Shown: one piece after another, positions 1 through 17,679 of the stretch
How positions within the stretch are numbered: the first letter of the stretch is position 1
Layout: the number at the start of each line of letters is the position of its first letter
NCBI GenBank assembly: GCA_017609985.1
Contig: JAFCCW010000019.1
Location: 1 to 24,602, forward strand
DNA: 24,602 bases
Direction: 5' to 3'
Source of the DNA: Candidatus Iainarchaeum sp.
Lineage (GTDB): Archaea > Iainarchaeota > Iainarchaeia > Iainarchaeales > JAFCCW01
Translations under genes and position numbers: made by a program
The notes under the pieces: model-generated
Told to the model about the DNA's origin: nothing
Seen by the model: only the letters and a program-made list of their open reading frames with translations
Databases searched by the model: none

Positions 1-5
1 GAGAG

Positions 6-1760
6 TTGGTTGGATTGCTGTTGTCAGTTGACAGCAACTGCGATAAGTGCGGAGACTGCCTCAGGCACTGCCCTAACAAGCTTGAAATTAATGGTCTTAA
101 CTGCAGGCATTGCCCGCCCTCAGAAGCAAAATGCGCAGAAGCTTGCCCGCAAAATGCTTTTTTTGAAACTGCTTCCAGTGTGCTCTCAATCGACAAGAGC
201 AAATGCGATGGCTGTGGAGCTTGTGTTGAAGCCTGTCCTTATTCTGCAATCAGCCTCGTGAACGGCAAGGCAGTAAAATGTGATTTGTGTGCTGATAACA
301 ATTTTTTTCAATTATGCATTGGAGCCTGTCCTTTAAACAAGATAAAACTAGTTCATTCAAAAAAAGACATTGAAAAAATTGAAAAATTCCTTGGCTGGAA
401 TGTTGTTCAGGGAAATCTGAGCACAAACAATATAATTGAAAAAAACAGTCGGGGGCAAAGAATATTTATTGCAGCCCTCCCATCCCTGTCTCTTGGAGAA
501 GCAGAATTATTTTTGGAAACCGTTGAAAAAATACAGTCCTCAAAACAGAACTCGTTTCATGCTTTGAAAAAACAATGCATTGAAAAATGTGCTGAAATTA
601 GTACTGAACAAAAAGAGTATCTTTGCAGATTGCTTGAGATTGACACAAAAAAAGGCGGAGTGCTGAGTGTCTTACTGGACGATGACAGCATTGAAGAAAT
701 TGCAGTAATTGGAGTTGGAAAAGAAAAACCTGTTTTTGTTTTTCACAGAGCATTCGGCTGGATTGAATCAAGCCTTTTCTTTTGTGAAGAAAAAAAGCTT
801 GTTGAAAGCGTTAACAGATTGTGCCGTTCAACTGGAAGAAGACTTTCAATGCAGACTCCGTTGATTAATGCTTCTCTCGAAAACGGAAGCAGGCTTAATG
901 CAGCAATTGAACCTGTTGCTTTTTCTGGACCAAGTGTTACAATAAGAAAGTTCAGGTCAAAAGCTTTTACTCCTGCAGAGCTTGTTTCAAACAAAACATT
1001 CAGCGCAGAGGCAATGGCCTTTGTTTGGACTGCAATGGAAACTGATGCTTCTCTTCTTGTGGCAGGAAACACGGGAAGCGGAAAGACAACATCACTCAAT
1101 GCATTGTTCTGCTTTGTGCCGGAGAACGAGAGAATTGTTGTAGTGGAAGAAACCCCAGAGTTATTTTTTCCGCACAAGCATATTGTGAAATTGAATGTCT
1201 GCGACGAGCGAAGCATTAGAATGCATTCCCTGATTGAAAACACTTTGAGAATGCGCCCTGACAGAATTGTAGTAGGAGAAGTTAGAAGCAGGGAAGAGCT
1301 TTCCTCATTTATTGATACTCTTTTGGCTGGACAGGGAAGAGGAAGCTATGCAACATTCCATTCAACTTCTTCAGAGGAATGCATCAGAAGAATGAGAAAT
1401 CTCGGAGCAGATGAAACAGACTTGTGTTCAATAGACCTGTTGATTTTGCAGAGAAGATGGGTTTCATTCGATGACAAAGGAAAAACAAAAACTGAAAAGA
1501 GAAGAATTATGGAAATTTCAGAAATTGTGCAGAAAGACGGGTGTGTAAAACCAAACAAGATTTTTTCATTCAATTACAGAAAAGACTGTTTGGAAAAGAC
1601 AGGAGAAAGCAGCAGGATAAAGGAAAAAACAAAAAATGCTTTCTCTGGCGCAGAAAACAGTTTTAAGAAAAGCATTCTGAAAAAGAAAAAATTTCTTGAA
1701 ACTGTTTCAAAAAAAACAATCAGCCTGGAAGAGTTTATGAGTGAAATCCATGAAAATTGA
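6..1760 (+). CDS. Type IV pilus/Tad secretion ATPase (CpaF/TadA/VirB11 family) with N-terminal 4x[4Fe-4S] polyferredoxin domain
   Basis: N-terminus has CDKCGDCLRHCP, CRHC-x6-CAEACP, CDGCGACVEACP and CDLC-x8-CIGACP (16 Cys, DmsB/CooF/HydN-like spacing). C-terminal part has TIRKF, Walker A GNTGSGKTT, Asp box VVVEETPEL, LRMRPDRIVVGEVR (Walker B) and ATFHS. The TTG start at 6 is at the window edge and the frame is open upstream, so the true start may lie outside the window. Confidence 0.92.
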   Translation: MVGLLLSVDSNCDKCGDCLRHCPNKLEINGLNCRHCPPSEAKCAEACPQNAFFETASSVLSIDKSKCDGCGACVEACPYSAISLVNGKAVKCDLCADNNFFQLCIGACPLNKIKLVHSKKDIEKIEKFLGWNVVQGNLSTNNIIEKNSRGQRIFIAALPSLSLGEAELFLETVEKIQSSKQNSFHALKKQCIEKCAEISTEQKEYLCRLLEIDTKKGGVLSVLLDDDSIEEIAVIGVGKEKPVFVFHRAFGWIESSLFFCEEKKLVESVNRLCRSTGRRLSMQTPLINASLENGSRLNAAIEPVAFSGPSVTIRKFRSKAFTPAELVSNKTFSAEAMAFVWTAMETDASLLVAGNTGSGKTTSLNALFCFVPENERIVVVEETPELFFPHKHIVKLNVCDERSIRMHSLIENTLRMRPDRIVVGEVRSREELSSFIDTLLAGQGRGSYATFHSTSSEECIRRMRNLGADETDLCSIDLLILQRRWVSFDDKGKTKTEKRRIMEISEIVQKDGCVKPNKIFSFNYRKDCLEKTGESSRIKEKTKNAFSGAENSFKKSILKKKKFLETVSKKTISLEEFMSEIHEN

Positions 1761-2505
1761 AAAACACGAGCTGAAGAAAGCAGTTGAGAAACATGCTGGG
1801 ATTTCCGCAGTCGCAGGAATAATTGTGTGGTTTATTGTGGGGCTTTATTCAAAGAAACTTTTTGAGAGCCTGTTTTTTGGAGCTCTCGCGGGCTTTCTTG
1901 TTCTTGCTATTTTAATTTCAATCCAGTTCAGGAAAAAAAAATTTAAGACAGAGTTGTTCAGAAAAGAACTTCCCTTTGCACTTAATTCTTTTGCGTTAAG
2001 CATTTCGCTTGGAGCCTCTTTTGAAGAAGCTCTTTTGTCAGTAGGGAAAGGAAGCTATGGCTTGGTTTCAGAAGAATTCTGCAAAGCACTAAAGTCAATA
2101 GAAGAAAAAGGCACCAGCGTGCAGGAAGCACTTTTGTCTATTTCAAAGAAATATCAAAACATTGAAATAAAACAGGCAGTGTCAAGGATTATTCTGATTT
2201 ATGAACAGGGAAGCAGAAAAACTAGTGTTGAAGCAATTCACAAAATGTCTTCAGAAATTTTAAGAAAACAGAAAGCCTCAGCACAAGAGTTCTCCGGAAA
2301 GATTGTTGTTTTTTCTCTTGCATTCATCGCAGTTTCCGCAGTCATTCCTGCAATTTTCCAAGCTTATGTTATAATAGGTGGACTTTTTCTTAAAACAAGT
2401 TTCACACCAGTGCAGGTTTTTATTACAATCGCTTTTGTGTTCCCCCTCCTCGATCTCATAATTCTTGCAATAATCAGGTCAAAGACTCCTGTTTTTCTGA
2501 GGTAA
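1750..2505 (+). CDS. TadB/TadC-like (T2SSF family) pilus membrane platform protein
   Basis: Two N-terminal TM helices, then ELPFALNSFALSISLGASFEEAL...GLVSEEF...GTSVQEAL (T2SSF signature) and two C-terminal TMs. Overlaps the ATPase stop. ATG at 1750 preferred over GTG at 1741. Confidence 0.85.
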   Translation: MKIEKHELKKAVEKHAGISAVAGIIVWFIVGLYSKKLFESLFFGALAGFLVLAILISIQFRKKKFKTELFRKELPFALNSFALSISLGASFEEALLSVGKGSYGLVSEEFCKALKSIEEKGTSVQEALLSISKKYQNIEIKQAVSRIILIYEQGSRKTSVEAIHKMSSEILRKQKASAQEFSGKIVVFSLAFIAVSAVIPAIFQAYVIIGGLFLKTSFTPVQVFITIAFVFPLLDLIILAIIRSKTPVFLR

Positions 2506-2551
2506 TTAAAAGAGCGGGTGAGTAGCATGTGGGCAAGTAGTGGGTGAGTAA

Positions 2552-3466
2552 ATGGAATTGATTGAAATTTTTGTTGAAAAAAAAAGAATTCAGTTGCTTG
2601 AAAAAAAACTAGAATGCTCCGGACTTTCATTCAATAATTTTTTGAAACTGTGCATTGCCACAGGTCTTGCAGGAGCAGGAACAATAGGAATTTCTTCTTT
2701 TTGGATTGAATTTTTCAGAGAATTTTTCGTGGCAACAGCAGCGCTTGGCTTTGTTCTTCCCTGCATTCTCTTATTTTTTATTGTGTCCTACAAGTATGAA
2801 AGCCAATTCAGAAAGAAAGAGTCTGCGGTTCCGGAATCTCTTTTGTCTGCTTCAAGCTTTCCCTCAGGCACGACAGCTGAAGAAATTTTGAAAAAACTGG
2901 GGGAAGAAGAAAATGCTCTTGCGCAGGAATTCAAAAAAGCAAGTCAGGAAATAAGACTTGGAGCCGATTTTGACAAGGCATTGATGAATCTTGGAAAAAG
3001 AGTGCAGAGCCCTGTTGTGGACAGAGCAGTTGAACTTTTAGTTCAGGCTTATGGAAGCGGAGCAGACATGAGCCTTGCTTTTAGACAGGCAGCAGAGGAT
3101 ATGCTCGAAACAGAATCAATTATTAGAGAACGGAGAGCAAATCTAATTATTCAAAAATACACACTTCTTTTTGCAGGAGGAATTCTTGTGCCTCTTGTTC
3201 TTGGACTTCTTGAAGGAGTTGTTTCAGGAATTGATTTTTCAATGCTTGAAGAGCTTTCTTTTGGGGGAACAAAACAATACGGAAAAGAACTTGCAGATTC
3301 AGCAGGGATAGCAAGTTTTTTTTATCTTGCAGAATATGCTCTTATTGCGTCTGCCTTTGTTGCGTTTATGGAGGGTAACAGAAAAAATTTTTTCTTTTAC
3401 GCAGTGATTCTATTACCATTGAGTTTTTTTTCCTATTTTGCTGGAAAAATCATTTCAATGGCTTAA
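2552..3466 (+). CDS. TadC/TadB-like (T2SSF family) pilus membrane platform protein
   Basis: TM pair, then ALAQEFKKASQEIRLGADFDKALMNLGKRVQSPVVDRAVELLVQAYGSGAD (T2SSF core) and three C-terminal TMs. Third gene of the ATPase operon. Confidence 0.87.
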   Translation: MELIEIFVEKKRIQLLEKKLECSGLSFNNFLKLCIATGLAGAGTIGISSFWIEFFREFFVATAALGFVLPCILLFFIVSYKYESQFRKKESAVPESLLSASSFPSGTTAEEILKKLGEEENALAQEFKKASQEIRLGADFDKALMNLGKRVQSPVVDRAVELLVQAYGSGADMSLAFRQAAEDMLETESIIRERRANLIIQKYTLLFAGGILVPLVLGLLEGVVSGIDFSMLEELSFGGTKQYGKELADSAGIASFFYLAEYALIASAFVAFMEGNRKNFFFYAVILLPLSFFSYFAGKIISMA

Positions 3467-3537: not shown

Positions 3538-4290
3538 ATGAGAGTAGCAGAAATAGAATTTGTAATGACAAAAAAAACAGACCTATCTGGATTTACTCTC
3601 ACAGAGGGTTTCCCAGGCATGGGTCTAGTGGGAACAATTAGTTCAAAATATCTTGTAGAAAAACTCGGGTTTCAAGAAATTGGTTATATGAAGTCAAATA
3701 TTTTTGTTCCAGTCATAAGAATTCACGGAGGCGAACTTGTAAGACCTTCAAGAATTTATGCAAGCAAAAAACACAAACTTGCAGTGATTGTTTCAGAGCA
3801 GATTATTCCAACAGCTTACACAGAAGATGTTGCAAAAGCTATTGTTCAATGGATTAAGAAAAATAAGATTTCAAGAATTATTTCCTTGAGCGGAATTCGC
3901 GCACCAGATACAGAATATAAGAAGAGCGATTCCTGCATTTATGGAATTGCAGCAAATGCAAAATCAAAAAAGTTTCTTGAAAAATATAAAATAAAAATTA
4001 TTCAAGAAGGAATAACCAGCGGCATTACATCTCTTATCCTGCTAGAACTGAAAGCAACCGGAATTGAAGCTGTTTCAATAATGGGCAATGTGCATATTGC
4101 CGCAGACTATGAAGCAGCATCAGACATTCTAAAAAAGCTTGATGAAATCGTGAAACTAAAGATAGACCTGAATCCGCTAAAAAAAGAAGCAAAGGAAACA
4201 GAGTCAGCTCTACTGAAACAGTTAGAGCAAATAAAAAAAGAACACGAGGAAGTCAAAAAGGTTGAAGAGCGGACTCCAATGTACACTTAA
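3538..4290 (+). CDS. PAC2-family proteasome assembly chaperone/activator (PbaA/PbaB-like)
   Basis: Characteristic EGFPGMGLVGTISSKYLVEKL N-terminus, P(S)RIY, ADYEAA, IDLNPLKKEA and a C-terminal HbYX motif (M-Y-T). Confidence 0.88.
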   Translation: MRVAEIEFVMTKKTDLSGFTLTEGFPGMGLVGTISSKYLVEKLGFQEIGYMKSNIFVPVIRIHGGELVRPSRIYASKKHKLAVIVSEQIIPTAYTEDVAKAIVQWIKKNKISRIISLSGIRAPDTEYKKSDSCIYGIAANAKSKKFLEKYKIKIIQEGITSGITSLILLELKATGIEAVSIMGNVHIAADYEAASDILKKLDEIVKLKIDLNPLKKEAKETESALLKQLEQIKKEHEEVKKVEERTPMYT

Positions 4291-5349: not shown

Positions 5350-5751
5350 TTACTTATCACATAGTTTGACTGCTGTTTCAACTGCTCTTCTAGCATAAGA
5401 GTCAACTCGCTCCGCAGCCTGTTGCCGTGTCATCTTCGGTCCTGAAACACCAAAGCCAACTGGCTTGTTGTATTCAAGTGAGAGGTCCATTACCTTTCTA
5501 GAGCAATGACCAGCAACAACATCATCATGAGCTGTGCCACCCTCAATAACTGCCCCCAAAGTTACTACTGCGTCAATCTCTTTTTTTTCAAGAAGACGCT
5601 TTATTGCCAGAGGCATATCAAATGCGCCGGGAACAGAAACTGTTTCCGCAATCTCTGCACCAAGAAACTTTGCATGCTCTTCTGCTCTCTTCAACATCAT
5701 TTGGGTTATGTCATAATTGAATTCAGACACAACAAAACCTATTCTAACCAT
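5350..5751 (-). CDS. ribH: 6,7-dimethyl-8-ribityllumazine synthase
   Basis: [39 protein letters not shown] and [10 protein letters not shown] are archaeal RibH motifs. 133 aa. Confidence 0.96.
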
Positions 5752-5866
5752 TTTTCCACACTCCTTTGCATTGATTTTTTCGACTTCAGTTAGTTATTTG
5801 ATTTTATTGATTTTTTGATTCATTAATTTCTTTGTTTGAATTTTGATTCCCTGATTTTTTCAATTT

Positions 5867-6334
5867 TCAAATATTTAATTTTTTAGCGTTTTTTGAACCC
5901 TGTCTCTGCCCGGTTCCAGCTCTTTTTCGAAGAGAATCCTGATTAAACAAAAGGTCAAGTACATTTAGCGCGTGCTTGGATGCCCTATCACGCATTATTT
6001 CAGCAAGCTCTCTGTCATTCCTGCCCTCGTCTTCATGAACAAATACTTCAATTATGTGAGTGTTTGTTGCAAGCTGTGCCTGAATAATTCCTTGAGATGC
6101 TTCATGTGTACAGACCTTGTCAATATCTTCCTTGCCAGGCATTCCGAGCGCAATAACAATATCACATTCTTTTTCTTCAATAAGTTTCTTGCAGGCAACA
6201 GGCAAATCTTTTACTCCTGGGACAGTGAATCTCTCCACTCTGACATCTGGCCTTGCTTCCTTAATTGTTCTTTCAGCTAACCCGCCCATATCTCCGCGGG
6301 CAAACATAGTGTCAGCTATTCCAATTTTTTTCAT
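5867..6334 (-). CDS. ribC: Archaeal-type riboflavin synthase (lumazine-synthase paralog)
   Basis: KIGIADTMFARGDMG, TVPGVKDLPVACKKLIEE, ALGMPG and HIIEVFVHEDE are typical of archaeal RibC. Overlaps the ribK stop. Confidence 0.96.
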   Translation of the reverse strand: MKKIGIADTMFARGDMGGLAERTIKEARPDVRVERFTVPGVKDLPVACKKLIEEKECDIVIALGMPGKEDIDKVCTHEASQGIIQAQLATNTHIIEVFVHEDEGRNDRELAEIMRDRASKHALNVLDLLFNQDSLRKRAGTGQRQGSKNAKKLNI

Positions 6335-6996
6335 TTAATCCCGTCTGAAATTTTTATTTTGTCTCCGTTTTCCAAGGAAAGCTTTTTTCTGAGAAAAACA
6401 GGCGAGACAATTTCAAGAATTTTTTTTCCAAGAGAAGAACGCTCTGGCACAAGAACTGCTGCTTCAATTCCTTTTCCAACCAGCACAGGAAATGCATCTA
6501 TTTTTCCAAAGCTTCTTTCACCGGTTTTGAAACCATCTATTTTCACAGGATTCATTTTCCTGAGAAAATGCTCTGCTTCGTGCTCTTCCACTTTGATATT
6601 AAGAGTTCCTTTGAATGGCTTGAATCCAAGGAGTTTTTTAAACTGCAAAACATAGCTTGGTCTTGAAGTATAATATGCCCCCTCACCCAGACCATCACAA
6701 ACAAGCCCTAAGAGTTCATTTCCTGTTTTGCAAGAAGCCAAGCTTACTGCCCTTTTTCCTGTTTTTTTAAGAAAATTTTTTCCCTTTTCAGAGACTGAAA
6801 GAATTGTTCCTGTTGAAGAAGGAATTCTTTGAACAAGATTCTGAAATTCAAGAGAGCGCATGATTCTCGAAGCAGTCTGCTGTGAAACCATGAGTTTTTT
6901 TGCAAGTTGGGCAGTAGACATTTTAGAGCCTTGGGTGCTTCTGCTGTTTACGTGCTCAGCTATTTCAAGAAGCGCAAAAAATTCAACTGATTTCAT
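6331..6996 (-). CDS. ribK: CTP-dependent riboflavin kinase with N-terminal winged-HTH (RbkR-type bifunctional regulator)
   Basis: HTH region STAQLAKKLMVSQQTASRIMRSLE. Kinase motifs GLGEGAYY, LGFKPFKGTLN, PERS and LEIVSPVFLRKKLSLENGD. Confidence 0.92.
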   Translation of the reverse strand: MKSVEFFALLEIAEHVNSRSTQGSKMSTAQLAKKLMVSQQTASRIMRSLEFQNLVQRIPSSTGTILSVSEKGKNFLKKTGKRAVSLASCKTGNELLGLVCDGLGEGAYYTSRPSYVLQFKKLLGFKPFKGTLNIKVEEHEAEHFLRKMNPVKIDGFKTGERSFGKIDAFPVLVGKGIEAAVLVPERSSLGKKILEIVSPVFLRKKLSLENGDKIKISDGIK

Positions 6997-7138: not shown

Positions 7139-10100
7139 CTAAGATTGTCCTTTAATCAGAATTGTTTTTCTCACCCAGACAAAGCAGACAGCAAGACTTG
7201 AAATAAATACTGCAATCCACAGCAAGTCTGTTGGTAAAGATGGAAGATCAAGTAGCGATCCAGAGCCAGAGCCAATATTCACATTCATGCTATTGCCTGT
7301 TGCATTTGATGTAACTGCCCCATCCGGCCCAACAGAGGTTCCAACACCAACCTGTTTGAATGCTTCAAGCAATGGAAGAAGCTGTGCATTTTCTGGATAC
7401 CACAAGCCCTTATCTGGATCGTAGTAAAAAGAACCATTCTTTCCCTGAGCAGATGTCAAAACCTCTTCAGGAGAATCATTGTATTTGAGCATTGGAATTC
7501 CGCCATCCGCTGAAAATTCAAGGTCATGAGTCTTTCCATCCTCTGTTGTTATCTTTATTCCATCAGCAGTCTGTTCTACTCCACCATCAACTATTTCAGA
7601 TTCATAGACTTCACCTGTCTGCTTGTCAATTACCTTGAAGAAGTTTTTGCAACAATCAAGGCCATTGCAACCGCCTTCTTCAACATATTTTGAATAAATT
7701 ATGAAACGTTTTGTGGGAGTATCAAACACCTGGAATGGGCCAAGATGTTTCATTGAGTCATTGAAGTTTTCAACTCTCGTGGAAATCATTTCAGAGCCTT
7801 CAGTAGCTATTGCACTTAAGTCAACTGCTGGCTCAGGACAGTTTGTAACAGGATTTGTAACCTGTGTTAAATCTGCTTTCAATCCAGCCACATCTGTTTG
7901 ATTAAGCACTGCATTCTTGTGGTGCTTTAACCAGACAATAAGCTCGTTTGTTTCAGGCTTGTAGACTATTACTCCGTTTTCAAACTGGATTGAATCAAAC
8001 AAGCCAACATTTACATCTCTGCTGTTTGAAAGCTTTACTTCTCTGCTTCCATAAACCATCGCGTGTGCGCCTGTTCCCTCTACAACTTCTCTTGGAACTC
8101 CCTCTGCAATAATTATTTTTTCAGAAGGCTTTACCAAAATAGCAGGATGTGAATCAGTAACTATTGATTTTACTTGTCCAAAAGCATCCGTAAGATTGCT
8201 TGAATAAAGCGGGACAGCAGTCTGTTCAAGAACACCTGCTTTTATGCAGTCTAAAACCTGTTTGTCAAGAACCGTAAACCTGCCGTCAACATCAAGCCTG
8301 AACAAAGGACCTGTTCCAGACAACTTAACCTTTGTCAGATTCTGTGGAATTTCCTCAGCAGGAATATTTGTATTAGTGCTTGTTAACCTTACAGCATCCT
8401 CATCATCAATCACGCCTTCTCCGTTTACCTTAATTTTTCCATCTTCAAAATCAATGTCAACATCAATTCCATTTTCTTTGTCAGAAATAACTTTTTTGCC
8501 ATCCTCTCTGTACTTGGAGGCATTGGTTTCCCCCTTAAACCAGTGATAGAACAAAGCAGGACTGGAGATTTTTCCGCTTGACTCACCCCTCATTGACACA
8601 ACGGATTCTACAACATCCGGCTTTGTCTGGCTTTTAGTGAATTTTTCGACTTGTTCCTTTACTTTTTGAGCCTGCTCTGCTAGTGCTCCGCCCTCTCCTC
8701 CGCTCAGCGAATCCATTACAGTATTTGTTCCATCGCTTACCATCTCACTAATGTTTTCAGCTGAAAGCTTGCTTGCTTGCTCTGTTCCCTCTGCTTCTTT
8801 GTCAGAAGCCGCGAACATGTGAGTATAATATCCTTCTTCAGTGTCAATGCACCCAGCAATCTTTGGAGCAACCATTATTTGTTGAACAACTGTTGAAAAA
8901 CCTCCGCCAGCCCAGCCGAACAAGAAGTAAGACAATGATTCTCCTGCAGCCATGACTCCTCCAGCCCTGCTTCCAAGATCCCAGCCAAGCAATGCTTCCT
9001 TAACAGCTTCCCTGCATGTGTTTCCCTCTCGCTCTGCCTTGACAAGGTCAATGGGTTCGCCGCCCTCTTCTCCAACCATGTTAGTGTGATGTGAAAAAGA
9101 AATAAGTGTAGTGCCTATTTCTCTTGCTTCTTTTCCAGCATCCTCAACCATATAAGCATCCAAGTTACCAGTTACGTCAAATGCTGGGCTGAAATCTTTG
9201 CCAGTCTGAGAATTTATAACTGAGGTGCAGCCATAGCATCGTTGAGAAGTAGTCATGTAAAGAGCAATGTTCTCAACCTTGTTTCTCACACCAGTGCCTG
9301 TTAACTGCTGAAATGTTTTCTTCAATGGATTGTATTTTTCTGAAACAGTGTCAAGAATCATCTTCCAAGGCAGCTTGTTTAAAACCTGTGAAAAGATATC
9401 CCCCTGGTCACTTCCAGCGTTTGCAAAATAGTCAATGTAAGCATCCTGATAGATTGGATTGTTTCCAAGAACTGAAGAAATTTCTTCCCAGGATTCAGGA
9501 AGCATGTAAGCTGAGAGACCAGAAGCAGCATCTTCTCCAACAATCTCTGCCCCTCCTCTCTTAACTTCCCAGAAGATGAATGGATAGAGAGTCCACTTAA
9601 CCCCGCCCTTTAAAATAAAATAATCTTTAAGAAGCTCGTCCTGCTGTGCAAAGGCTTTGTCAAGTGCACTGAAAAAACGCCTTTCAATATAGTTGGATTC
9701 TCTTAATGTCTTGTAAAAGTCATCAATATTTTTTGTGACAGCACTATATTTACTAAGACTTCTGTCTCTCACAAGCAAGTCCGAGAAATCCAACGGAGTC
9801 CAGTCACCAGCATGTTCCCAGCCACCGTCAAGAATTTTTACGTCACCGGAAATATTTGACTTAATAAAATTCATATTGTGTTCTGCAAGCTGCATTCTCT
9901 TGCCGTTGTCAAGCTGAACAAACTTATCCTTGTATTTTGACAAAGCCTGCTCTATGTTGTCAGCAGGAACTGATGCAATTTCATTTCCAGCTCCAATCCG
10001 ATAATAGGATAATGCTTCGCCCCCGTTTTTTGTCACATACGCAGTGTTAGAGCCAACCTCGGGGGTTGCAATGCTTTTAAAGTCAGGCTGTTTTCCAAAT

Positions 10101-11143
10101 TCCCTCATTATTTTTCCGATGTGCGTACTGTCTCCGGAAAGTTCATAAAACTCGCCAGTTGTTGCATCCTTTACAGCCATGTCATACATTCCCGAGAATG
10201 ATTCACGGCTAAAGTATTCAGGAAAATCAAGTGAAATAGTTGCATCCATGCTCTCGTAAAGACCTGATACCTTGCTACCATAGTTTACTCGTGCTGCCTG
10301 CCCAGCAGGATGATTGAATGGATCTTCAATGCCTTGCTTTCTGAGAAGAGCAATTAAGTTATCAAATTCAGACTTTGCCTTGTCCATCATTGCCTGGTTT
10401 GTTTTTTGATAGCCTCTGATTTCTGCAACACTTTTTGCAAGCTCTCTTCGCCTCACAGGGTCAGTTATTTTTCCAACAATTCCTTCCTCCGGATCCATCA
10501 TATTATTTTTAAATTTTCTCCAGCCACTGCCCGCAGTAAACTTGTAACCGCCAGTCCAGCCGTCAGTGGATTCAATCAAAGGCTCGTACACATCGTAGAG
10601 ATGATACTTGGAAAGCCGGTTGTTAAACTGGTTCAGCCTCTGCTTTCCAAACCACTGGTCTGGTCTTGTGAAAGTGTTTCTAAACCATTGATGGAATTTT
10701 GAATTGGAAATATCCCAAAACCATCCGCGCATTTCTGCCCCGCCAAGAAGTCTGCCTGCCTCTGAAAAAAAAGTTGGGCCAAAATTGCTCACAACCATTT
10801 CCGCAGAAAACCAAGAATTAAAGTATTTGTCAAAAAGAGAATAGGTTGAAATAATTGTTGCTCCTGATGTTCCATCAGTTTGTGTCTTTGCAGTAAATTC
10901 ACGGGTAAGAATTGAATTAGGAATTAAGTCAACATCAGTGTTTCTCTGCAAAAACTGGTACTGGAATGTTTGACCAAGTGACACGATATGTTCTTTTGCA
11001 TTTAGAATCTGGTCTTTTGCTTTTGCAACAGTTGATGTGGATGTGTTTTCATCACCTGTGCTTCCTGAGCTATTGTCGCCACTGCCTGTGCTATTTTTTT
11101 CCTCATCAGCATTGTTTTCGCCACTGTCTTCAGTTCCTTTACT
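7139..11143 (-). CDS. Giant cell-surface protein, C-terminal part (about 1330 aa open frame) with C-terminal TM anchor; probably joined to 11002-11796 by a -1 frame change
   Basis: The frame stays open upstream of the GTG at 10984 as far as a TGA at 11144-11146, and encodes an S/G/N/T/D linker there. It has no signal peptide of its own. It ends SGSGSLLDLPSLP-TM(LLWIAVFISSLAVCFVWV)-RK. Confidence 0.8.
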   Translation of the reverse strand, partial: SKGTEDSGENNADEEKNSTGSGDNSSGSTGDENTSTSTVAKAKDQILNAKEHIVSLGQTFQYQFLQRNTDVDLIPNSILTREFTAKTQTDGTSGATIISTYSLFDKYFNSWFSAEMVVSNFGPTFFSEAGRLLGGAEMRGWFWDISNSKFHQWFRNTFTRPDQWFGKQRLNQFNNRLSKYHLYDVYEPLIESTDGWTGGYKFTAGSGWRKFKNNMMDPEEGIVGKITDPVRRRELAKSVAEIRGYQKTNQAMMDKAKSEFDNLIALLRKQGIEDPFNHPAGQAARVNYGSKVSGLYESMDATISLDFPEYFSRESFSGMYDMAVKDATTGEFYELSGDSTHIGKIMREFGKQPDFKSIATPEVGSNTAYVTKNGGEALSYYRIGAGNEIASVPADNIEQALSKYKDKFVQLDNGKRMQLAEHNMNFIKSNISGDVKILDGGWEHAGDWTPLDFSDLLVRDRSLSKYSAVTKNIDDFYKTLRESNYIERRFFSALDKAFAQQDELLKDYFILKGGVKWTLYPFIFWEVKRGGAEIVGEDAASGLSAYMLPESWEEISSVLGNNPIYQDAYIDYFANAGSDQGDIFSQVLNKLPWKMILDTVSEKYNPLKKTFQQLTGTGVRNKVENIALYMTTSQRCYGCTSVINSQTGKDFSPAFDVTGNLDAYMVEDAGKEAREIGTTLISFSHHTNMVGEEGGEPIDLVKAEREGNTCREAVKEALLGWDLGSRAGGVMAAGESLSYFLFGWAGGGFSTVVQQIMVAPKIAGCIDTEEGYYTHMFAASDKEAEGTEQASKLSAENISEMVSDGTNTVMDSLSGGEGGALAEQAQKVKEQVEKFTKSQTKPDVVESVVSMRGESSGKISSPALFYHWFKGETNASKYREDGKKVISDKENGIDVDIDFEDGKIKVNGEGVIDDEDAVRLTSTNTNIPAEEIPQNLTKVKLSGTGPLFRLDVDGRFTVLDKQVLDCIKAGVLEQTAVPLYSSNLTDAFGQVKSIVTDSHPAILVKPSEKIIIAEGVPREVVEGTGAHAMVYGSREVKLSNSRDVNVGLFDSIQFENGVIVYKPETNELIVWLKHHKNAVLNQTDVAGLKADLTQVTNPVTNCPEPAVDLSAIATEGSEMISTRVENFNDSMKHLGPFQVFDTPTKRFIIYSKYVEEGGCNGLDCCKNFFKVIDKQTGEVYESEIVDGGVEQTADGIKITTEDGKTHDLEFSADGGIPMLKYNDSPEEVLTSAQGKNGSFYYDPDKGLWYPENAQLLPLLEAFKQVGVGTSVGPDGAVTSNATGNSMNVNIGSGSGSLLDLPSLPTDLLWIAVFISSLAVCFVWVRKTILIKGQS

Positions 11144-11796
11144 TCATCTGGAGTTGCGCCGGTTTCCTCAGTAAACTTTGCTCTTAAATTTTCATATTCT
11201 TCGGCGGAGAGTTCAGGGGGTTTTTCTACAAAAATGCTTTTGAAGTCGTCCCAGACATTTCCAAAATTCTGTTTTATTCCCTCTCCAGAATTTCGATAAG
11301 CAAGATTTTTTCCCTGAAGCATGCAACTGTTCAGGTCAAGCTCTCCAGCTTCTTTGGATTCACACCTGCCTATTCGGATTGTGTCCTCAAGAACTATGCC
11401 AAAAGCAAAAGGCCCATTATAGTGAGTGTTGATTAGATGAGAAACTTCCTCTGGATTAATTTTTTGAGAAGGCATTTCCTGTTCAATGGCTAGCTCGTCA
11501 CTTGCTTTTACAAGAAGCGTGTTCTGGTCAAGAACATCTCTGTCAAGGTCAGGTTCTGTTCCGGAACTGAGCTCACCCCCAGTAAAACCCTTGTTTATTG
11601 TTTCATCGTATAATTTCTGAACCTGTTTTGGGCCAAGGGAAGTATTTGTGCAAGCAAAACTGTTTGTGCTGGTTTCAACAACTGGCACTGCAACAGGCAC
11701 TGGGTTTTCTCCACCCACATCTGCAAAAACAGGCAGAAACATTGAATTCAAAAAGAGATAGAAAACAATTAGCGAATAAATTTTGTTCCATTGCAT
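11002..11796 (-). CDS. Secreted protein, N-terminal part of the giant surface protein (Sec signal peptide)
   Basis: MQWNKIYSLIVFYLFLNSMFLPVFA|DV signal peptide. ATG at 11796 overlaps the upstream TGA (TGATG coupling). The 3' end overlaps the downstream frame by about 140 nt. Confidence 0.8.
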   Translation of the reverse strand: MQWNKIYSLIVFYLFLNSMFLPVFADVGGENPVPVAVPVVETSTNSFACTNTSLGPKQVQKLYDETINKGFTGGELSSGTEPDLDRDVLDQNTLLVKASDELAIEQEMPSQKINPEEVSHLINTHYNGPFAFGIVLEDTIRIGRCESKEAGELDLNSCMLQGKNLAYRNSGEGIKQNFGNVWDDFKSIFVEKPPELSAEEYENLRAKFTEETGATPDEVKELKTVAKTMLMRKKIAQAVATIAQEAQVMKTHPHQLLQKQKTRF

Positions 11797-12329
11797 CAAG
11801 AACCACCGTAAATAAACATGACAAGCGCAAGCAATAACCAGGGCATTACAAACAGCACTAAAGCAATCACTATCAAAACAGTTAAATAAACTGAGGCAAA
11901 GACTTTCAGCATTGTTTTTCCAACAAATTTTTTGTCAAGGAAAGAAAAAGCAAGAGAGGCAATAAGTTCAAATGGAATCACAATAATTGTGAGAACAAGT
12001 GACTTGAGCAAGAGAGAAACAAATGTTGAAATATTGTAGAAAATTACATCCTGTGCACTTGGCAGAAATTCAGGCGGAACAGTGCCTTTAAGGTCAAATG
12101 GTACAGAAAGCAGCGGAAAGAAATACAAAAAGAATATTAATAAGGTTACAATTACATATGTGGAAATGAACGAGGTTTTAACCCAATTCATGTCCAGTTT
12201 TTTTGAAAGCTTTGACTGTATTGCTGCAGCAATTAATGCCAGCCCGAAAACAGGAATTGAAAGCAGTAATCCTGTTTTCAACAGATCAAAAACCGAAATT
12301 AGGAAAACTACGACTAAATCAAGAACCAT
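11796..12329 (-). CDS. Integral membrane protein (about 4-5 TM), co-transcribed with the giant surface protein
   Basis: Almost entirely hydrophobic 177 aa, with stop/start overlap to the next gene. Confidence 0.8.
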   Translation of the reverse strand: MVLDLVVVFLISVFDLLKTGLLLSIPVFGLALIAAAIQSKLSKKLDMNWVKTSFISTYVIVTLLIFFLYFFPLLSVPFDLKGTVPPEFLPSAQDVIFYNISTFVSLLLKSLVLTIIVIPFELIASLAFSFLDKKFVGKTMLKVFASVYLTVLIVIALVLFVMPWLLLALVMFIYGGS

Positions 12330-12398: not shown

Positions 12399-14711
12399 TT
12401 GATTGAATTGTTAGGGCAAGCAGCGTATCTTTTTGTTGGATCTGCTTCTGCAGGATACATTCTTTTAAGAATTGGCTGGCCTTCAACCCGCGGCCTTAAC
12501 GAAAGCTACAAGGCGGGCTGGGCAATAGTTATAGGAGCCTTGTTTGCAGTTGTTGCCCTTATTATGGCAATAGTTATTGCTGGTTTTGGAATTGGAAATC
12601 CATTGCTGGCTTCTGCTTCACTTGCATTTATAATCAGCGGAATTGCTCTCAGCACGAAAAGAAAGACAATTGCAAAAAAAAGAGTGAGAATTTCTATTCC
12701 AAAAAAGATTTATGTAAACAAAGCAGAGGGCAAACGCAAAGAAAAACTATTGATTGCATCAAAAAAGATTCCGGAACACAGAGCAAGAGAATTAAGAGAA
12801 CTGCTTCATGAAAAAAGTGAAAAGAAAAAAGAGGAGAAAGAAAAAGATGCTGAAAAAAACAAAACTGCGGAAGGAATTGACAATGTTTTGAAAAATAAAA
12901 AAGTTGTTGAAAAAACAAAAGAAACTGAAGAAAAAACAGAGAACGCAAAGAAAGAGAATTTGTCGGTAGTCACTGAATCAAAAAAATTATCTTTTGTTTC
13001 AAAATTTAGAGACGGGAAAGAAAAAGAGACAGACAAAGAAGAGGTTGTTGACAAGATTGAAAAAGAATGGAGCAAGCTTGAGAAAAGAGGAGAAAAATCT
13101 AAAAGAAAGCAAGCTGGAGCTGGCTCAAACTTAAAGACTTCGTTGTTTGGATTTCTTTCCCGAAAAAAAGATGACAAAAAAGAAGTCTCAGAAAAAAAGC
13201 AATTGTCAGAACCGGAAACTAAAACCGGGCAAACCGCAGAAAAACCTGAACAAAAAGTTTCAGAAGAAAAAAAAATCCAAGGCAAAGAAAAAACTGAAAC
13301 TGGTTATGAGCGACTGCCAAGAAGATTTTCTTCCAGACAAGAGAAAAGAATGAAGGAACAAAAAAGAAGGGGACAAGAAAGAAAAGCAGAACAAAAATCA
13401 GAAAGCAAGATTTCAGGAACTGAAAAATTAAAACTTGCCTTGTTTGGAGCACACACAAAAGACTTTAAAAAAGATAATCTGGAAGAACAAAAGAGTGGAG
13501 AAGAAGGCAAGGAGTCATTCAAACAAGACCGGGGCAAAGAAGAGGAAACAAAAACAATTGGACAGATATTAGCAGACCAGACTCTTGAAGAATCCAAGCC
13601 AGAGAAGACGCACGGGGCTGAAGCATTTAAGAGAATTGTTGAAGACAAAGAACTTGAACTTTTAGAGAGAGAAAAATCAATATCTGAAAAGGCAAGACTT
13701 GCAAGACAGTCAGTTATTGAAAGTGAAAAAACTGAGCAAGAACTTGAAGAAACTGAAAAACAAGAAAAGGAAATTTCTGAAAAAAGAGATGAAGAAGTAA
13801 AGAAAATAATGAGCAAGCTTAAGTCGATTTCAGAGAAAAAAAAGAAACCAAGCAAGAAAAAGAAAAAACACACCCCGAGAAGGCTCAGAAGATTCAAAAG
13901 AGCAGAGGGACAGGAAATTTCAGAAGAACAAGAAGATGAAATATCAGACGCACTTGGATCAAGCATGCCAAGAGACAGTTTCAAGGGAACTGATTTAGGG
14001 GAAGAAAGTGAAGATTTGTTTGAGCAGATTGATTCTGGAAAAGGCGAGAGAACACGAAAGCTTGCTTCAGAAGAATACGAACTCTTTGTTTCAAAACACA
14101 GGCGTGTTCCAAAAGGAAGAGAATATGATGAGATTGCGTCAAATCTTTACGACCAGATAAAAGATGATGGTAGTGGAGAAGAACATGGTCGAGGAAGAAG
14201 AAGCAGAAGAGATGAAAGCCTGGGCGAAGAAGAAAAAGAAAAAACCAGCAGAGGAAGAAGAAGCAGGAGTTCAAGGCACGGTAAAAGAGATGAGCAAGAA
14301 AACGAGGAAGAACCAGGGGAAATTAAGGATATTGAAGACAGTGATGTTGGCGAAACAGGATCAATGGAAGATTTGAGTGTAAAAGAACTTCTGGGAGCTG
14401 ATTCTGGAAAAGATACCGCAAACCAAGCAATTGAAAAAAGCAGTAATTTTGAGGGTGGCGTGCCAGACTTTTCTGAAGACCTTGAATTGAAAGGACTGGA
14501 AGACGGAGTAGACAATATTTCTGAAGAACTTGAAACAGACAAAAACTCTTGCCCAAGTTGCAAGAGCAAGACAGGTGAACTAATTTTTTGCTTTGAATGC
14601 GGAACAGGTTTTTGCCCACACTGTGCAACAAAAGCAAAGAAAATTGGAGACATTACACATTATTCTTGTCCAAAGTGTGGAGCAGAAGTAAAAGTTAGAC
14701 CTAAGATGTAA
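12399..14711 (+). CDS. Membrane-anchored protein with long charged disordered region and C-terminal double zinc ribbon
   Basis: Three N-terminal hydrophobic helices, more than 600 aa of K/E/R/S-rich low-complexity sequence, and C-terminal CPSC..CFEC..CPHC..CPKC. GAGGTG precedes the TTG start. Confidence 0.82.
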   Translation: MIELLGQAAYLFVGSASAGYILLRIGWPSTRGLNESYKAGWAIVIGALFAVVALIMAIVIAGFGIGNPLLASASLAFIISGIALSTKRKTIAKKRVRISIPKKIYVNKAEGKRKEKLLIASKKIPEHRARELRELLHEKSEKKKEEKEKDAEKNKTAEGIDNVLKNKKVVEKTKETEEKTENAKKENLSVVTESKKLSFVSKFRDGKEKETDKEEVVDKIEKEWSKLEKRGEKSKRKQAGAGSNLKTSLFGFLSRKKDDKKEVSEKKQLSEPETKTGQTAEKPEQKVSEEKKIQGKEKTETGYERLPRRFSSRQEKRMKEQKRRGQERKAEQKSESKISGTEKLKLALFGAHTKDFKKDNLEEQKSGEEGKESFKQDRGKEEETKTIGQILADQTLEESKPEKTHGAEAFKRIVEDKELELLEREKSISEKARLARQSVIESEKTEQELEETEKQEKEISEKRDEEVKKIMSKLKSISEKKKKPSKKKKKHTPRRLRRFKRAEGQEISEEQEDEISDALGSSMPRDSFKGTDLGEESEDLFEQIDSGKGERTRKLASEEYELFVSKHRRVPKGREYDEIASNLYDQIKDDGSGEEHGRGRRSRRDESLGEEEKEKTSRGRRSRSSRHGKRDEQENEEEPGEIKDIEDSDVGETGSMEDLSVKELLGADSGKDTANQAIEKSSNFEGGVPDFSEDLELKGLEDGVDNISEELETDKNSCPSCKSKTGELIFCFECGTGFCPHCATKAKKIGDITHYSCPKCGAEVKVRPKM

Positions 14712-14721
14712 TAAGTAAGGC

Positions 14722-15585
14722 CTAGGGCGTAATGGACACAGGTGGACAATCAGATGTTCCAATTACACAGCACCTCAAATGAGAGTTGTCTCCTTCAAGC
14801 AATGGAAGGCCATCATTTGGTTCCGGAACTTCTCCAGAATGCCACATTAAGAGATAAGCTGTTGCAACAGGCCACTCTGTTTCAAAATGCGAACCAGCAG
14901 AACGTGATTGAGTCAGCTTTGGAAGCTTTATTGTAGTACTGCTTTGAAATATATCCCCAATGTTTACAAGAAAATTATTTGTAAAGTCATCCATTGAAAC
15001 TGGATTGCAATAGTATTCTACACGCTGGGCATCGGAAACAGTTTTGTATCTCCCCTCTCCCTCAAGCGCGTATTTTGTCCATTTCAGATACATGTAAACA
15101 AATTCATCTGTTACAGCAGAACCAGGATCAGGTTCTATGTGAATATAGAAAACATAGTTGAAGACATCGCTTTGCGGAGCCATAACTCCCTTGACAACAG
15201 AAGTAAGGGTTTCCCTGTAATCATCCAGCATGCTGTCATCAGCATAGTCTTCTTTAATAGCAGTAATCAGGTAGTCTACTTCTTTTGCATCAGAGATAGA
15301 AGCAGAGTCTCCACGCGGAACAGTAACATACATTATTGTTTTAAGAGATGAATCAATGTATTCTGCAAAATATTGTTTGTCAAGCTGTTTTGTTACAAGA
15401 AAGCCGTACTGAGTTGAAGAGATAAGCAGGAAAACTGAAAGCACTGAAACAATCATTAAGAAAAACATTGCATCTGTCACAGAAGCTTGTCCATTTGAAT
15501 CCCTTGATTTTGATTGATTCAAAGACCAAGCTTGGTTTGAATACAATGATTGCTTTAATTGCTTTAACTTGATTAATAAGCCCAT
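14722..15585 (-). CDS. Pilin-like protein with class III signal peptide (minor pilin)
   Basis: SNG|QASVTDAMFFLMIVSVLSVFLLISS. Last gene of the pilin run. Exact start uncertain. Confidence 0.75.
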   Translation of the reverse strand: MGLLIKLKQLKQSLYSNQAWSLNQSKSRDSNGQASVTDAMFFLMIVSVLSVFLLISSTQYGFLVTKQLDKQYFAEYIDSSLKTIMYVTVPRGDSASISDAKEVDYLITAIKEDYADDSMLDDYRETLTSVVKGVMAPQSDVFNYVFYIHIEPDPGSAVTDEFVYMYLKWTKYALEGEGRYKTVSDAQRVEYYCNPVSMDDFTNNFLVNIGDIFQSSTTIKLPKLTQSRSAGSHFETEWPVATAYLLMWHSGEVPEPNDGLPLLEGDNSHLRCCVIGTSDCPPVSITP

Positions 15586-16151
15586 AACACAATCACCAAA
15601 ACCATTGGCCTGACTGCAAACTTGCTGTCAAGCGTTCTTGCCATGTCAGGATTACTCTCTGACCAGATTTTTGTTGTTTGAAGAGCAATAGGATACTGTA
15701 CTACAACATAGTCTCCGCTTCTTGAAGAAGCATCTTCTTCAACATTAGTGCACCTGAAATCCTGTCCTGTTTCAGGGTCTTTGTAGAATTGAATGTCCAA
15801 AACATTAACTGTTTCGTAAACATCTTCAATCTTTTCTTCACCGATTTTAAGTTCAACCAAGCCAGCTCTGTACTTGAGCTTTTTGATTCCAAGAGAATCG
15901 CAGACTTTCTGAAATGAATCATGTCCTTGAATATATGCCGCAGACCTCATTTCAGCAGTAATCTTTGAAGACTCAACAGATCTGTCAAAAACAGTGTTGT
16001 GTCTGTCAAACTCGTTCAAGGAATATGAAAAAACTCCAAAGAAAAGAACAAGAGCAAAGATAAGTGGAATAAGGCTGGGAATATCATCTCCAATCGGACC
16101 AATAAAACCTTTTTTGTTAATCACCACTTTTTCGTTAATCACCAATATCAC
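15573..16151 (-). CDS. Pilin-like protein with class III signal peptide
   Basis: NKKG|FIGPIGDDIPSLIPLIFALVLFFGVFSYS. The start may be one of the downstream GTG codons. Confidence 0.72.
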   Translation of the reverse strand: MILVINEKVVINKKGFIGPIGDDIPSLIPLIFALVLFFGVFSYSLNEFDRHNTVFDRSVESSKITAEMRSAAYIQGHDSFQKVCDSLGIKKLKYRAGLVELKIGEEKIEDVYETVNVLDIQFYKDPETGQDFRCTNVEEDASSRSGDYVVVQYPIALQTTKIWSESNPDMARTLDSKFAVRPMVLVIVLWAY

Positions 16152-16860
16152 ATCCGCAAGTCCACTCGCTCACAGTATCAGATTCACAGCAGGGAGCTAG
16201 AGGAAAACAGGCTCCTTCAAAACCGCGCTCTTTTTTTATCATACAGCCAACTAAACCAAGATTTTCTTCACAAAAGCCTCCGTCTACTCCCCCTTTTGAA
16301 GAGCAGGCAATGATGTAGATTGTTTTTTCTCCCTCATATCTTTCCATTAAAATTGTTACTGCATCTTTTGGAATTTGCTCTCCCCACATGTCTCTCTGAG
16401 GATCAATTAGAAGAGAATCAGATTCTTCAAAAAAACACTTGTTTCTTGTCTCATCCTCAACCCATTCAAACAAGCGAACATTTGCAAAGGTTTCAAAATC
16501 GGTTCCGCCAATTATTTGGGTTGGGTCAATTCTGCTTGCTGCTTTGAGGAGAATATAGTTTTTGCCAGAGTCATTTTCAACAAGCTTTGAAATTTTAACA
16601 GTGTAAAAATAACGTCCACCAGAAGCAATATCTGCAAAATAGTCAATGTATTTTGGAACTGAATTAATAGGGCTCCTGTCACAGATTGATTCCGAATCAA
16701 TCTTGTTGTAGATGTCGCTTCCTATTCTTTTGTCAATTATTTGCTGAGCAGAGTACTTGACCAGAACAGTGCTCCAGCCAAACATGAAGTAAGTGAGAAT
16801 AACAAACATGGAAAGAACAAGAATTAGCAAATTTATTTTGCTTATTGTAAAACCAAACAT
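16135..16860 (-). CDS. Pilus-associated single-TM Cys-rich protein (no class III leader)
   Basis: MFGFTISKINLLILVLSMFVILTYFM N-terminal helix, 10 Cys, GAGGTGA RBS upstream, embedded in the pilin operon. Confidence 0.75.
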   Translation of the reverse strand: MFGFTISKINLLILVLSMFVILTYFMFGWSTVLVKYSAQQIIDKRIGSDIYNKIDSESICDRSPINSVPKYIDYFADIASGGRYFYTVKISKLVENDSGKNYILLKAASRIDPTQIIGGTDFETFANVRLFEWVEDETRNKCFFEESDSLLIDPQRDMWGEQIPKDAVTILMERYEGEKTIYIIACSSKGGVDGGFCEENLGLVGCMIKKERGFEGACFPLAPCCESDTVSEWTCGCDIGD

Positions 16861-16906
16861 TCTTTCACCTCAAAACCTCAACTTTTATTAAACTCATTCG
16901 CTTTTT

Positions 16907-17464
16907 TTAAACTCGTTCCTTTTTGTAAGCGCAAATTGTTGGAATCCCACCAGTAATGCTTTTGTTAAGCAGCATATATCTGCCCTGCGGAATATCCTCT
17001 GAAAGATCTTGAAGAACAAATTTTTCAAACTGTCCGTCTATAGGGCAGGGCCCTGGATTTGACTGAGAAGGATAGTTTGTTTGAGCAGGAATGCTTAAAC
17101 ATTTTCTGAAACCAAAATCAGGATTGGTATAGCTGAGCAAAACACAGTTTTTCATTATTCCACTGCAAAAATTTTCGCACAAATATTCATTGTCAACGTG
17201 AACAACAAAAAAGTCCTCGTCTTCATCGGAATAGCAATCGTTTGGAAAATCAACAATTGTGTCAACACTTCCCTTCTTTATTACAACTTCTTCAAGCGCT
17301 GCTCTAAAGTCTTCCGACAGCTTGTTTATTTTCTGCCTGCAAACCTTGTCCTGAATGTCCTGCATTGCCATATATCCTGCAACAAGAACAAAACCCATTA
17401 TAACCACGGCAACAAGCAACTCAAAAGGAGCTTCCTCTTGTCCTTTTTCATCTAAGAATTGCAT
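16907..17464 (-). CDS. Pilin-like protein with class III signal peptide
   Basis: DEKG|QEEAPFELLVAVVIMGFVLVAG followed by an amphipathic helix. 8 Cys. Confidence 0.8.
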   Translation of the reverse strand: MQFLDEKGQEEAPFELLVAVVIMGFVLVAGYMAMQDIQDKVCRQKINKLSEDFRAALEEVVIKKGSVDTIVDFPNDCYSDEDEDFFVVHVDNEYLCENFCSGIMKNCVLLSYTNPDFGFRKCLSIPAQTNYPSQSNPGPCPIDGQFEKFVLQDLSEDIPQGRYMLLNKSITGGIPTICAYKKERV

Positions 17465-17635
17465 TCAAGCACCTGCTGGTTTTAGCTCTGCTTTTTGAAC
17501 AAGCTGTTGGCTTTGCTTGAACATAGGCTTTACTACAGCTATCAAAAGCAGAGCAGCTATTGCCAGGACTATGAGAAGATATATTGAACTCCATTCACTC
17601 TGTCCTTGCTCTTCTCTTAAAATCTCTTCAAGCAT
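17465..17635 (-). CDS. Small Flp-like pilin (56 aa), not in the supplied ORF track
   Basis: Manual translation: MLEEILREEQG|QSEWSSIYLLIVLAIAALLLIAVVKPMFKQSQQLVQKAELKPAGA*. Its TGA (17465-17467) abuts the ATG of the next pilin. TATA-like TATTAAATA 28 nt upstream. Confidence 0.85.
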   Translation of the reverse strand: MLEEILREEQGQSEWSSIYLLIVLAIAALLLIAVVKPMFKQSQQLVQKAELKPAGA

Positions 17636-17663
17636 TTAAACCAGTAATAGAAGCAGATTGTGG

Positions 17664-17679
17664 TATTTAATAGTTTCTC
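17664..17679 (-). promoter_or_regulatory. BRE/TATA promoter for the small pilin and downstream minor pilins
   Basis: Minus strand GAGAAAC-TATTAAATA, 28 nt before ATG 17635. Confidence 0.55.

Follow-up and report, generated by a model that had tools for sequence, protein, structure and literature searches.

A polyferredoxin on a filament motor: a Tad/Epd-like ATPase with four predicted iron-sulfur clusters in a Candidatus Iainarchaeum genome

Introduction

What might a chain of iron-sulfur (Fe-S) clusters be doing on the motor of a type IV filament machine? The question is raised by the first 24.6 kb of contig C5 (JAFCCW010000019.1) of a Candidatus Iainarchaeum genome (1.16 Mb in 37 contigs, 86.6% complete), a stretch that we will call the window. 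At its left edge, one open reading frame (ORF) joins a polyferredoxin to a secretion ATPase, and two genes for platform proteins follow. An earlier note, made from the letters of the DNA, had proposed this locus as a candidate redox-gated pilus system. The locus securely encodes the motor, together with its platform, of a Tad/Epd-like type IV filament machine from a small DPANN archaeon of the Ca. Iainarchaeum/Diapherotrites lineage, and it is a real and conserved variant of that known machine. Our best explanation overall, to which we would give a probability of about 0.5, is that of a Tad/Epd-like motor with a cluster-dependent regulatory and docking module.

Few prokaryotic machines have been studied as well as type IV filament motors, and the N-terminal additions known from them serve to bind nucleotides, second messengers, or partner proteins. 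Here, a four-cluster domain is kept with all of its ligands in dozens of species from two DPANN phyla, organisms that are thought to live fixed to other cells and that can spare very few genes. The fusion is of clear interest to specialists in type IV filaments and in DPANN archaea alike. If the clusters gate or power the motor, they would provide a direct link from redox state, oxygen, or iron supply to the assembly of a surface filament in uncultured symbionts.

The Fusion Gene and Its Two Parts

A scan of the window for ORFs returned a single forward frame, 3..1760, of 585 codons without a stop. Within it, the ORF, the Pfam matches, and the alignment of homologues place the polyferredoxin-ATPase fusion gene at 6..1760 (+), with its stop codon at 1758-1760; homologues 570-620 residues long match 94-99% of its product. 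The frame is open to the first base of the contig, with candidate start codons TTG 6 and TTG 15; the homologues have a Met 9-10 residues ahead of the first Cys, which aligns with TTG 15. Since the homologues start within about four codons of the contig edge, a few residues at most are missing from the fusion protein. The promoter and the upstream genes are lost at that edge.

The Fe-S domain, 39..329 (+), makes up the first ~118 residues and is supported by sequence, Pfam Fer4 families, conservation, and a fold match. It has four Cys motifs, each terminating in CP: Cx2Cx2Cx3CP at 39-71, Cx2Cx6Cx3CP at 102-146, Cx2Cx2Cx3CP at 204-236, and Cx2Cx8Cx3CP at 279-329, all on the forward strand. Six Pfam families (Fer4, Fer4_6, Fer4_7, Fer4_9, Fer4_10, and Fer4_11) score above their cut-offs over residues 28-114, for example, Fer4 at 36.4 bits (cut-off 21.1) and Fer4_11 at 28.4 bits (cut-off 26.2). 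The NCBIfam models give partial matches to YgfT/AegA, DmsB, NrfC, and DsrO; none is an equivalog for the domain, as all scores are far below the cut-offs (DmsB TIGR02951, 39.8 bits vs. 214.1). All 16 Cys are invariant in 20 of the 20 species aligned, so the pattern exceeds chance, and among 63 fused sequences 14 Cys are invariant and the other two are kept in at least 90%. Most likely, the domain binds four [4Fe-4S] clusters; this conserved N-terminal domain of the motor is almost certainly a cluster-binding one.

A linker, 360..455 (+), joins the two parts. In the AlphaFold model, it consists of a helix at residues 119-129 with a conserved LGW motif, and then a stretch of lower confidence at about residues 131-150. 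G130 is invariant and W131 nearly so, both in the species alignment and in the 63 fused sequences. Unfused orthologues start at about this linker.

The rest of the protein, 456..1757 (+), is the body of a secretion ATPase, an N-terminal domain followed by a RecA-like C-terminal domain, as indicated by Pfam, sequence matches in the PDB, Foldseek, and motifs. T2SSE (PF00437) matches residues 260-520 with an E-value of 4e-34 and 118.2 bits (cut-off 24.9). From the alignment we place the Walker A motif GNTGSGKT at ~1065-1088, the Walker B motif RMRPDRIVVGE with its catalytic Glu at ~1248-1280, and the His box ATFH at ~1359, all on the forward strand; these three and the EETPE box are present and invariant in 13 aligned sequences, and the motifs are likewise invariant in the alignment of the 63 fused sequences. 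The body finds sequence matches in PDB entries 2oap, 4ii7, and 8rkd, and no chain in the PDB sequence search matches both the Fe-S and the ATPase parts. This ATPase belongs to the archaeal GspE/FlaI/TadA branch of the secretion-ATPase superfamily.

The full-length AlphaFold model is confident (predicted local distance difference test, pLDDT, 91.4; predicted template modeling score, pTM, 0.79), with a dip at residues ~131-150, where blocks of the linker fall to pLDDT values of 74 and 65. The nearest folds to the ATPase body are afGspE (2oap), FlaI (4ii7), and CpaF (8rjf), with a Foldseek E-value of 1e-33 for the first two and template modeling (TM) scores, normalized to the target, of 0.71-0.75. 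Modeled alone, the Fe-S domain reaches a pLDDT of 88.1, and its top 10 Foldseek matches are all four-cluster subunits (E 5e-7 to 4e-5). The nearest among them (9mqx, 6x1o, 7qv7_A, 2vpw_B, 7z0s_B, 8c0z_C, and 1kqf_B; TM by query 0.55-0.67) come from tungsten aldehyde oxidoreductases, WOR5, hydrogen-dependent CO2 reductase, polysulfide reductase, formate hydrogenlyase, and formate dehydrogenase-N.

Two platform genes follow directly. The gene for a TadB-like protein of 254 residues, 1741..2505 (+), overlaps the ATPase gene by 20 nucleotides (nt) and encodes one T2SSF domain (Pfam, 29.9 bits vs. a cut-off of 25.2); its orthologue lies directly 3' of the ATPase gene in relatives. The gene for a TadC-like protein of 304 residues, 2552..3466 (+), likewise encodes one T2SSF domain (48.9 bits vs. 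25.2) and keeps its position.

Much of what the earlier note had read from the letters is borne out here. Frame, Cys motifs, and Pfam matches agree on one ORF that joins a 16-Cys polyferredoxin to a secretion ATPase and is followed by two T2SSF genes, and the assignment of the Fe-S part to the four-cluster CooF/HycB/DmsB fold class is upheld by Pfam, NCBIfam, PDB sequence, and Foldseek matches. The frame is indeed uninterrupted; as it runs open to the contig's first base, the ORF cannot be taken as complete, and TTG 6 is only one candidate start.

Is the Fusion Real, and How Widespread Is It?

A fusion gene at the edge of a contig may invite the suspicion that separate genes for a Fe-S domain and an ATPase were joined by an error of sequencing or assembly, all the more as window positions 473-653 are uncovered in the single related public run. 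That run, X1, is independent of the window and comes from a hydrothermal-vent metagenome. It supplies a 900-nt contig from a ~92%-identical relative, which is continuous over window positions 1-472, that is, from the Fe-S domain into the linker; 473-653 and ~1365-1615 are uncovered, and this says nothing either way. Upstream, the same contig reaches 425 nt beyond the window, so the missing region could be recovered from public data. A second run, X3, gave only a 34-nt match to a ferredoxin motif, and no RNA run was listed as holding the locus. The earlier note had pointed to about 340-480 as the place where a chimera would show; up to 472 that span is now covered by the related contig, and from 473 to 653 it is without cover in run X1.

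It is the recurrence of the fusion that makes an artefact so improbable, at odds of the order of one in a hundred. Besides the uninterrupted frame, the independent contig over 1-472, and a confident model of the junction, the fusion is found in at least 46 species genomes, in 45 loci of independently assembled metagenome-assembled genomes (MAGs), and in tens of metagenome proteins. We regard a chimera as ruled out by this recurrence together with the independent contig. A split-gene form was also rejected, as no stand-alone ferredoxin was seen within ±1.5 kb of nine unfused orthologues.

How common is the fusion? A search of protein collections found 2460 relatives among 8000 scored candidates, and the best ~60 relatives are 550-620 residues long, cover 91-99% of the query, and contain both Fer4 and T2SSE. 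We took a census of Cys motifs ahead of the ATPase in 120 listed homologues and the window protein (121 sequences): four motifs stand in 61, three in 10, and two in 3, which makes 74 with two to four; the other 47 count as having none, a figure that includes five sequences in which the Walker A pattern used was missed. With an alternative anchor, 79 of the 121 count as fused (at least 11 Cys ahead of the ATPase core).

Across the phylum, the orthologous ATPase occurs in all 215 species genomes. In 46, one match spans the Fe-S and ATPase N-domains at E ≤ 1e-25, and two weaker cases (G214 and G043) bring the total to ~48 of 215. The fusion is frequent in families f9 (16/22) and f11 (10/13) and absent from f12 (0/23), f14 (0/23), and f15 (0/38). 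A scan of one genome for each prokaryotic species retained 80 loci, and 45 of them run through both parts; the titles of these records name Ca. Iainarchaeum/Diapherotrites in 20 cases, Ca. Micrarchaeota in 8, and "archaeon" or "uncultured archaeon" in 17. Upon re-reading 46 loci, we counted four motifs in 28, three in 5, two in 10, one in 2, and none in 1.

The order ATPase-TadB-TadC is found in 18 of 20 fused loci, the remaining two of which stop at the ATPase, and also in all nine unfused related loci; it recurs in the 20-kb loci compared below. One related locus (L038, G214:C36, 7183-15909) holds two tandem ATPase-TadB-TadC sets, with a fused ATPase of 604 residues in one and an 802-residue paralogue in the other.

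Those expectations of the earlier note that could be followed in sequence data have thus fared well: the domain architecture recurs across genomes, in ~48 of 215 species of the phylum; the tadB/tadC synteny is conserved (18/20 fused and 9/9 unfused loci); and the homologues are fused, rather than unlinked, with Cys that are not degenerate.

Was the Domain Gained or Lost?

A FastTree phylogeny of the ATPase core was built from 121 rows, none of them dropped, after removal of the Fe-S columns; it is unrooted. The fused and unfused states require at least 11 changes on this tree, of which 6 are forced by starred (well-supported) branches, against a mean of 35 when the states are shuffled. The midpoint root has fused rows to either side of it. 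Of the 42 unfused rows, 30 fall into a single starred clade, which also includes the window's protein. Please note that some of the "unfused" rows are fragments (e.g., P0093, which is named partial). The pattern suggests a fusion that would be old, vertically inherited, and lost several times; because the tree is unrooted, loss is favored rather than shown.

Could the supply of Fe-S clusters decide where the domain is kept? In the window's genome, the genes for IscS and IscU are adjacent on contig C25, and SufBD was not found in this 86.6% complete assembly. IscU is present in 191 of the 215 genomes of the phylum, in fused and unfused families alike, and so does not discriminate between them; we therefore rejected Fe-S supply as the cause of presence or absence of the fusion. 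The fused genomes without IscU have SufBD in five of five cases, 2-3 kb from the fused gene in four. These four sufB/sufD neighbors (G198:C82, G202:C8, G203:C5, and G205:C5) all belong to one genus (g75, family f34) and may reflect only genus-level synteny.

What Does the Fe-S Domain Do?

We favor the reading of the Fe-S domain as a cluster-dependent regulatory and docking module because related machines do without the domain, no electron acceptor is in sight, and the domain seems to pack on the motor. In such a machine, the domain would be held against the ATPase body, and cluster assembly and redox state would set how active the motor is or whether it engages the platform. Filament assembly might thereby be tied to anoxia, to Fe-S supply, or to the ferredoxin pool. 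It is very likely that the fusion protein is a genuine Fe-S-bearing filament motor; that the Fe-S domain has a regulatory or sensing role is more tentative, a little short of an even chance. By analogy with its relatives, the ATPase is inferred to form a hexamer, which could hold up to 24 clusters. The gating of the motor by redox or oxygen state, and the passage of electrons to a surface structure, both raised by the earlier note, are purely inferential.

The packing comes from a prediction in which the Fe-S domain and the remainder of the protein were entered as two chains with four clusters; it scored 0.58, the best control scoring 0.00. At least 90% of contacts are common to its runs, and the partner has a pLDDT of at least 85. 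It is important to place this score against the calibration, in which 58 of 80 solved complexes and 2 of 110 mismatched pairs made the mark; passes at 0.60 or less came from 7 of the 80 solved complexes and from both passing mismatches, and are more often wrong than right. Moreover, our run used a custom alignment and 4Fe-4S ligands, unlike the calibration. The prediction thus weakly suggests that the domain docks on the ATPase body.

That weakness is one of several points that weigh against our reading, and they should be considered together. About three-quarters of the phylum's species have an orthologous motor without the Fe-S domain, and in none of the nine unfused loci does a ferredoxin gene of its own lie within ±1.5 kb, so the machine as such can do without the domain. 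The ligand set also varies: loci L072-L077, L068, L069, and L076 have ~12 N-terminal Cys and ATPases of 510-526 residues. To judge from their Cys, these forms probably carry three clusters and would be natural intermediates between four-cluster and cluster-free motors. Every close structural neighbor of the Fe-S domain is an electron-transfer subunit, and a four-cluster chain is a hallmark of electron transfer, redox and oxygen sensors usually having one cluster. The motor itself falls short of named families, with 204 bits against a cut-off of 550 for the FlaI equivalog (NF058587) and 173.3 bits against 373.15 for TadA/CpaF (TIGR03819). The earlier note's CpaF/TadA ATPase is accordingly of archaeal GspE/FlaI/TadA-CpaF type by sequence and fold, and the NCBIfam cut-offs admit it to neither TadA/CpaF nor FlaI. 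Finally, no pilin-like ORF of at least 70 residues adjoins the operon in the eleven 20-kb loci whose wider neighborhood we compared (in the window, the upstream DNA is missing), and Pfam Pilin_N has no match in the 86.6% complete genome.

A purely structural or mechanical function has nearly the same likelihood as the regulatory role, although we consider it doubtful on its own. Here, the domain would be a rigid handle at the N-terminus by which the motor docks to the platform or another partner, in the manner of the N-terminal di-cluster domain of ABCE1, and the clusters would give stability rather than carry signals or electrons. Its N-terminal position, the weakly predicted packing on the ATPase body, and the confident whole-chain model (pTM 0.79) are what one would expect, and the N-terminal extensions of FlaI and GspE bind partners. 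Chains of ABCE1 (5lzv_jj and 3jah_jj) are among the weak fold matches of the domain, but these are weak indeed (E ~0.03, TM by query 0.27). The invariance of the 16 ligands does not discriminate, because it is expected under a structural function too. A point against a handle is that the unfused orthologues keep the same TadB/TadC neighbors and work with them, so that a docking handle is not needed.

Alternatively, up to 24 clusters in the polyferredoxins of the hexamer could be arranged as a wire or ring. Electrons from cytoplasmic ferredoxin, reduced by pyruvate:ferredoxin oxidoreductase (PFOR), would travel along it to the platform, to the filament, or to the surface of the cell or of a host, with ATP hydrolysis possibly gating the flow. 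The fold class fits such a conduit best, its known members all being electron-transfer subunits, and the top neighbors include HycB3 of CO2 reductase (7qv7) and AorA (8c0z). HycB3 and AorA polymerize into conducting filaments, and four clusters exceed the needs of sensing. Donors are available as well: PFOR is present in the genome, along with small ferredoxins; ~10 other ORFs have two ferredoxin motifs. Yet no acceptor is visible. In the TadB/TadC-like proteins of the 11 loci, no alignment column has Cys or His in at least 60% of the sequences, apart from a single His column in 6 of 10 TadB-like sequences; on this alignment the platform proteins are without a conserved Cys/His cofactor site, and a redox site within them was accordingly rejected. 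Nor is any cytochrome or other redox gene conserved next to the operon in the compared loci, where the conserved neighbors are PAC2 and two giant surface-type kinds of protein. The Fe-S domain also appears to have been lost repeatedly without replacement, and 12-Cys variants exist. We rate a conduit as unlikely, and as less likely than the handle. The boldest version, in which a 24-cluster ring or wire at the filament base couples ATP hydrolysis with electron flow, or electron flow with filament dynamics, is a long shot. If true, it would represent a previously unknown class of redox-active secretion motor, by which DPANN archaea could exchange reducing power with a partner cell or sense its redox state.

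To distinguish between a regulatory and docking module and these rivals, nature has supplied useful material: orthologous motors with four, about three, and zero clusters are natural controls for comparative biochemistry.

Known Systems and Novelty

The best matches for residues ~200-573 are afGspE (2oap) and FlaI (4ii7/4ihq), at 165 and 140 bits. They share with the window's ATPase the N-domain, the RecA-like C-domain, and the Walker and His boxes; in contrast, they have no Fe-S domain, and the window's fusion has no archaellum genes nearby. In the Tad (CpaF/TadA with TadB/TadC) and Epd (EpdL with EpdJ/EpdK) systems, an ATPase is likewise accompanied by two single-T2SSF platform genes, and the fold of CpaF (8rjf) matches the window's ATPase with a TM score (target) of 0.73. 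The likeness lies in the ATPase and platform genes, whereas the window's motor has an N-terminal polyferredoxin and no pilin-like ORF of at least 70 residues adjoins it. Motor genes that lie apart from pilin genes have a precedent in the Epd pili of Methanococcus; according to the published study, the pili of M. maripaludis require one pilB homologue and two pilC paralogues (PMC4371748).

On the Fe-S side, HycB, CooF, HydN, DmsB/PsrB/NrfC/FdnH, AorA, and the small subunit of WOR5 also have 16 Cys in four motifs. Unlike these, the domain in the window is not free-standing, is very compact at ~118 residues, and has no gene for a catalytic partner nearby. A parallel in arrangement is ABCE1/RLI1, in which an N-terminal di-cluster ferredoxin-type domain sits on a mechanochemical ATPase of ribosome recycling with twin ABC domains. 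The analogy is that of a Fe-S domain on a P-loop ATPase, since the ATPase parts have no homology to the window's motor.

The earlier note knew of no pilus ATPase with this architecture. In a search of openly accessible literature, we found no paper that describes a ferredoxin or Fe-S domain fused to the ATPase of a type IV pilus, a secretion system, or an archaellum. In the searched text of the census of archaeal type IV pili by Makarova et al. 2016 (PMC4858521), the terms ferredoxin, Fe-S, 4Fe-4S, and DPANN have 0 occurrences, its supplements on domain content lying outside this check. The architecture itself is not unrecorded: hundreds of database entries already have it, and the automatic name at JGI reads [quoted passage not shown] In that one respect, its novelty had been overstated.

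Other Features of the Window and Its Genome

Other parts of a filament machine are encoded elsewhere in the genome. Two prepilin peptidases (Peptidase_A24) score above the cut-off on contig C25, and the window holds a second, canonical archaeal type IV pilus locus at 14722-23602 (-), recognized by Pfam and signal peptides. Its T2SSE ATPase of 762 residues (21314-23602, -) has a long N-terminal region without a family, and its platform protein of 780 residues (18940-21282, -) matches T2SSF just below the cut-off. The ORFs downstream of these encode 154-287 residues, three of them with class III-type signals. These three pilin-like ORFs (18479-18943, 17745-18326, and 16907-17464, all -) have KGQ or RGQ followed by a hydrophobic stretch, and it is only in this second locus, at 16907-18943, that pilin-like ORFs were found in the window.

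Immediately beyond the platform genes is a PAC2-family gene, 3538..4290 (+; Pfam PAC2, E 2e-39), which occurs just downstream of them in 10 of the 11 loci. This linkage to a proteasome-assembly-chaperone-like protein is common to fused and unfused loci.

The two giant surface-type kinds of neighbor are without a Pfam family. A large membrane-anchored protein lies upstream of the operon in 6 of 11 loci. A giant protein, group F2, with a membrane anchor at its C-terminus, is found nearby in 10 of the 11 and in the window lies at 7139..11799 (-). It has ~1450-1525 residues where complete in relatives; the window's counterpart is divided into ORFs of 265 (11002-11799) and 1281 residues (7139-10984) in different frames, which may represent a frameshift, a sequencing error, or two genes. 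At its C-terminus, a short motif, a membrane helix, and basic residues form a possible sorting signal. A 191-residue ORF at 23680-24255 (+) has a sub-threshold match to exosortase/archaeosortase (23.6 bits vs. 25.7).

The 770-residue protein encoded at 12399-14711 (+) begins with membrane helices, continues in a very long low-complexity stretch rich in Lys and Glu, and has C-terminal Cys pairs that resemble a zinc ribbon; its Pfam matches are all below the cut-off. A riboflavin set at 5350-6996 (-) comprises lumazine synthase, a second gene of the 6,7-dimethyl-8-ribityllumazine (DMRL)-synthase fold that is probably the archaeal riboflavin synthase, and a cytidine triphosphate (CTP)-dependent riboflavin kinase fused to a MarR-type helix-turn-helix domain, and such a set lies near the operon in 3 of the 11 loci.

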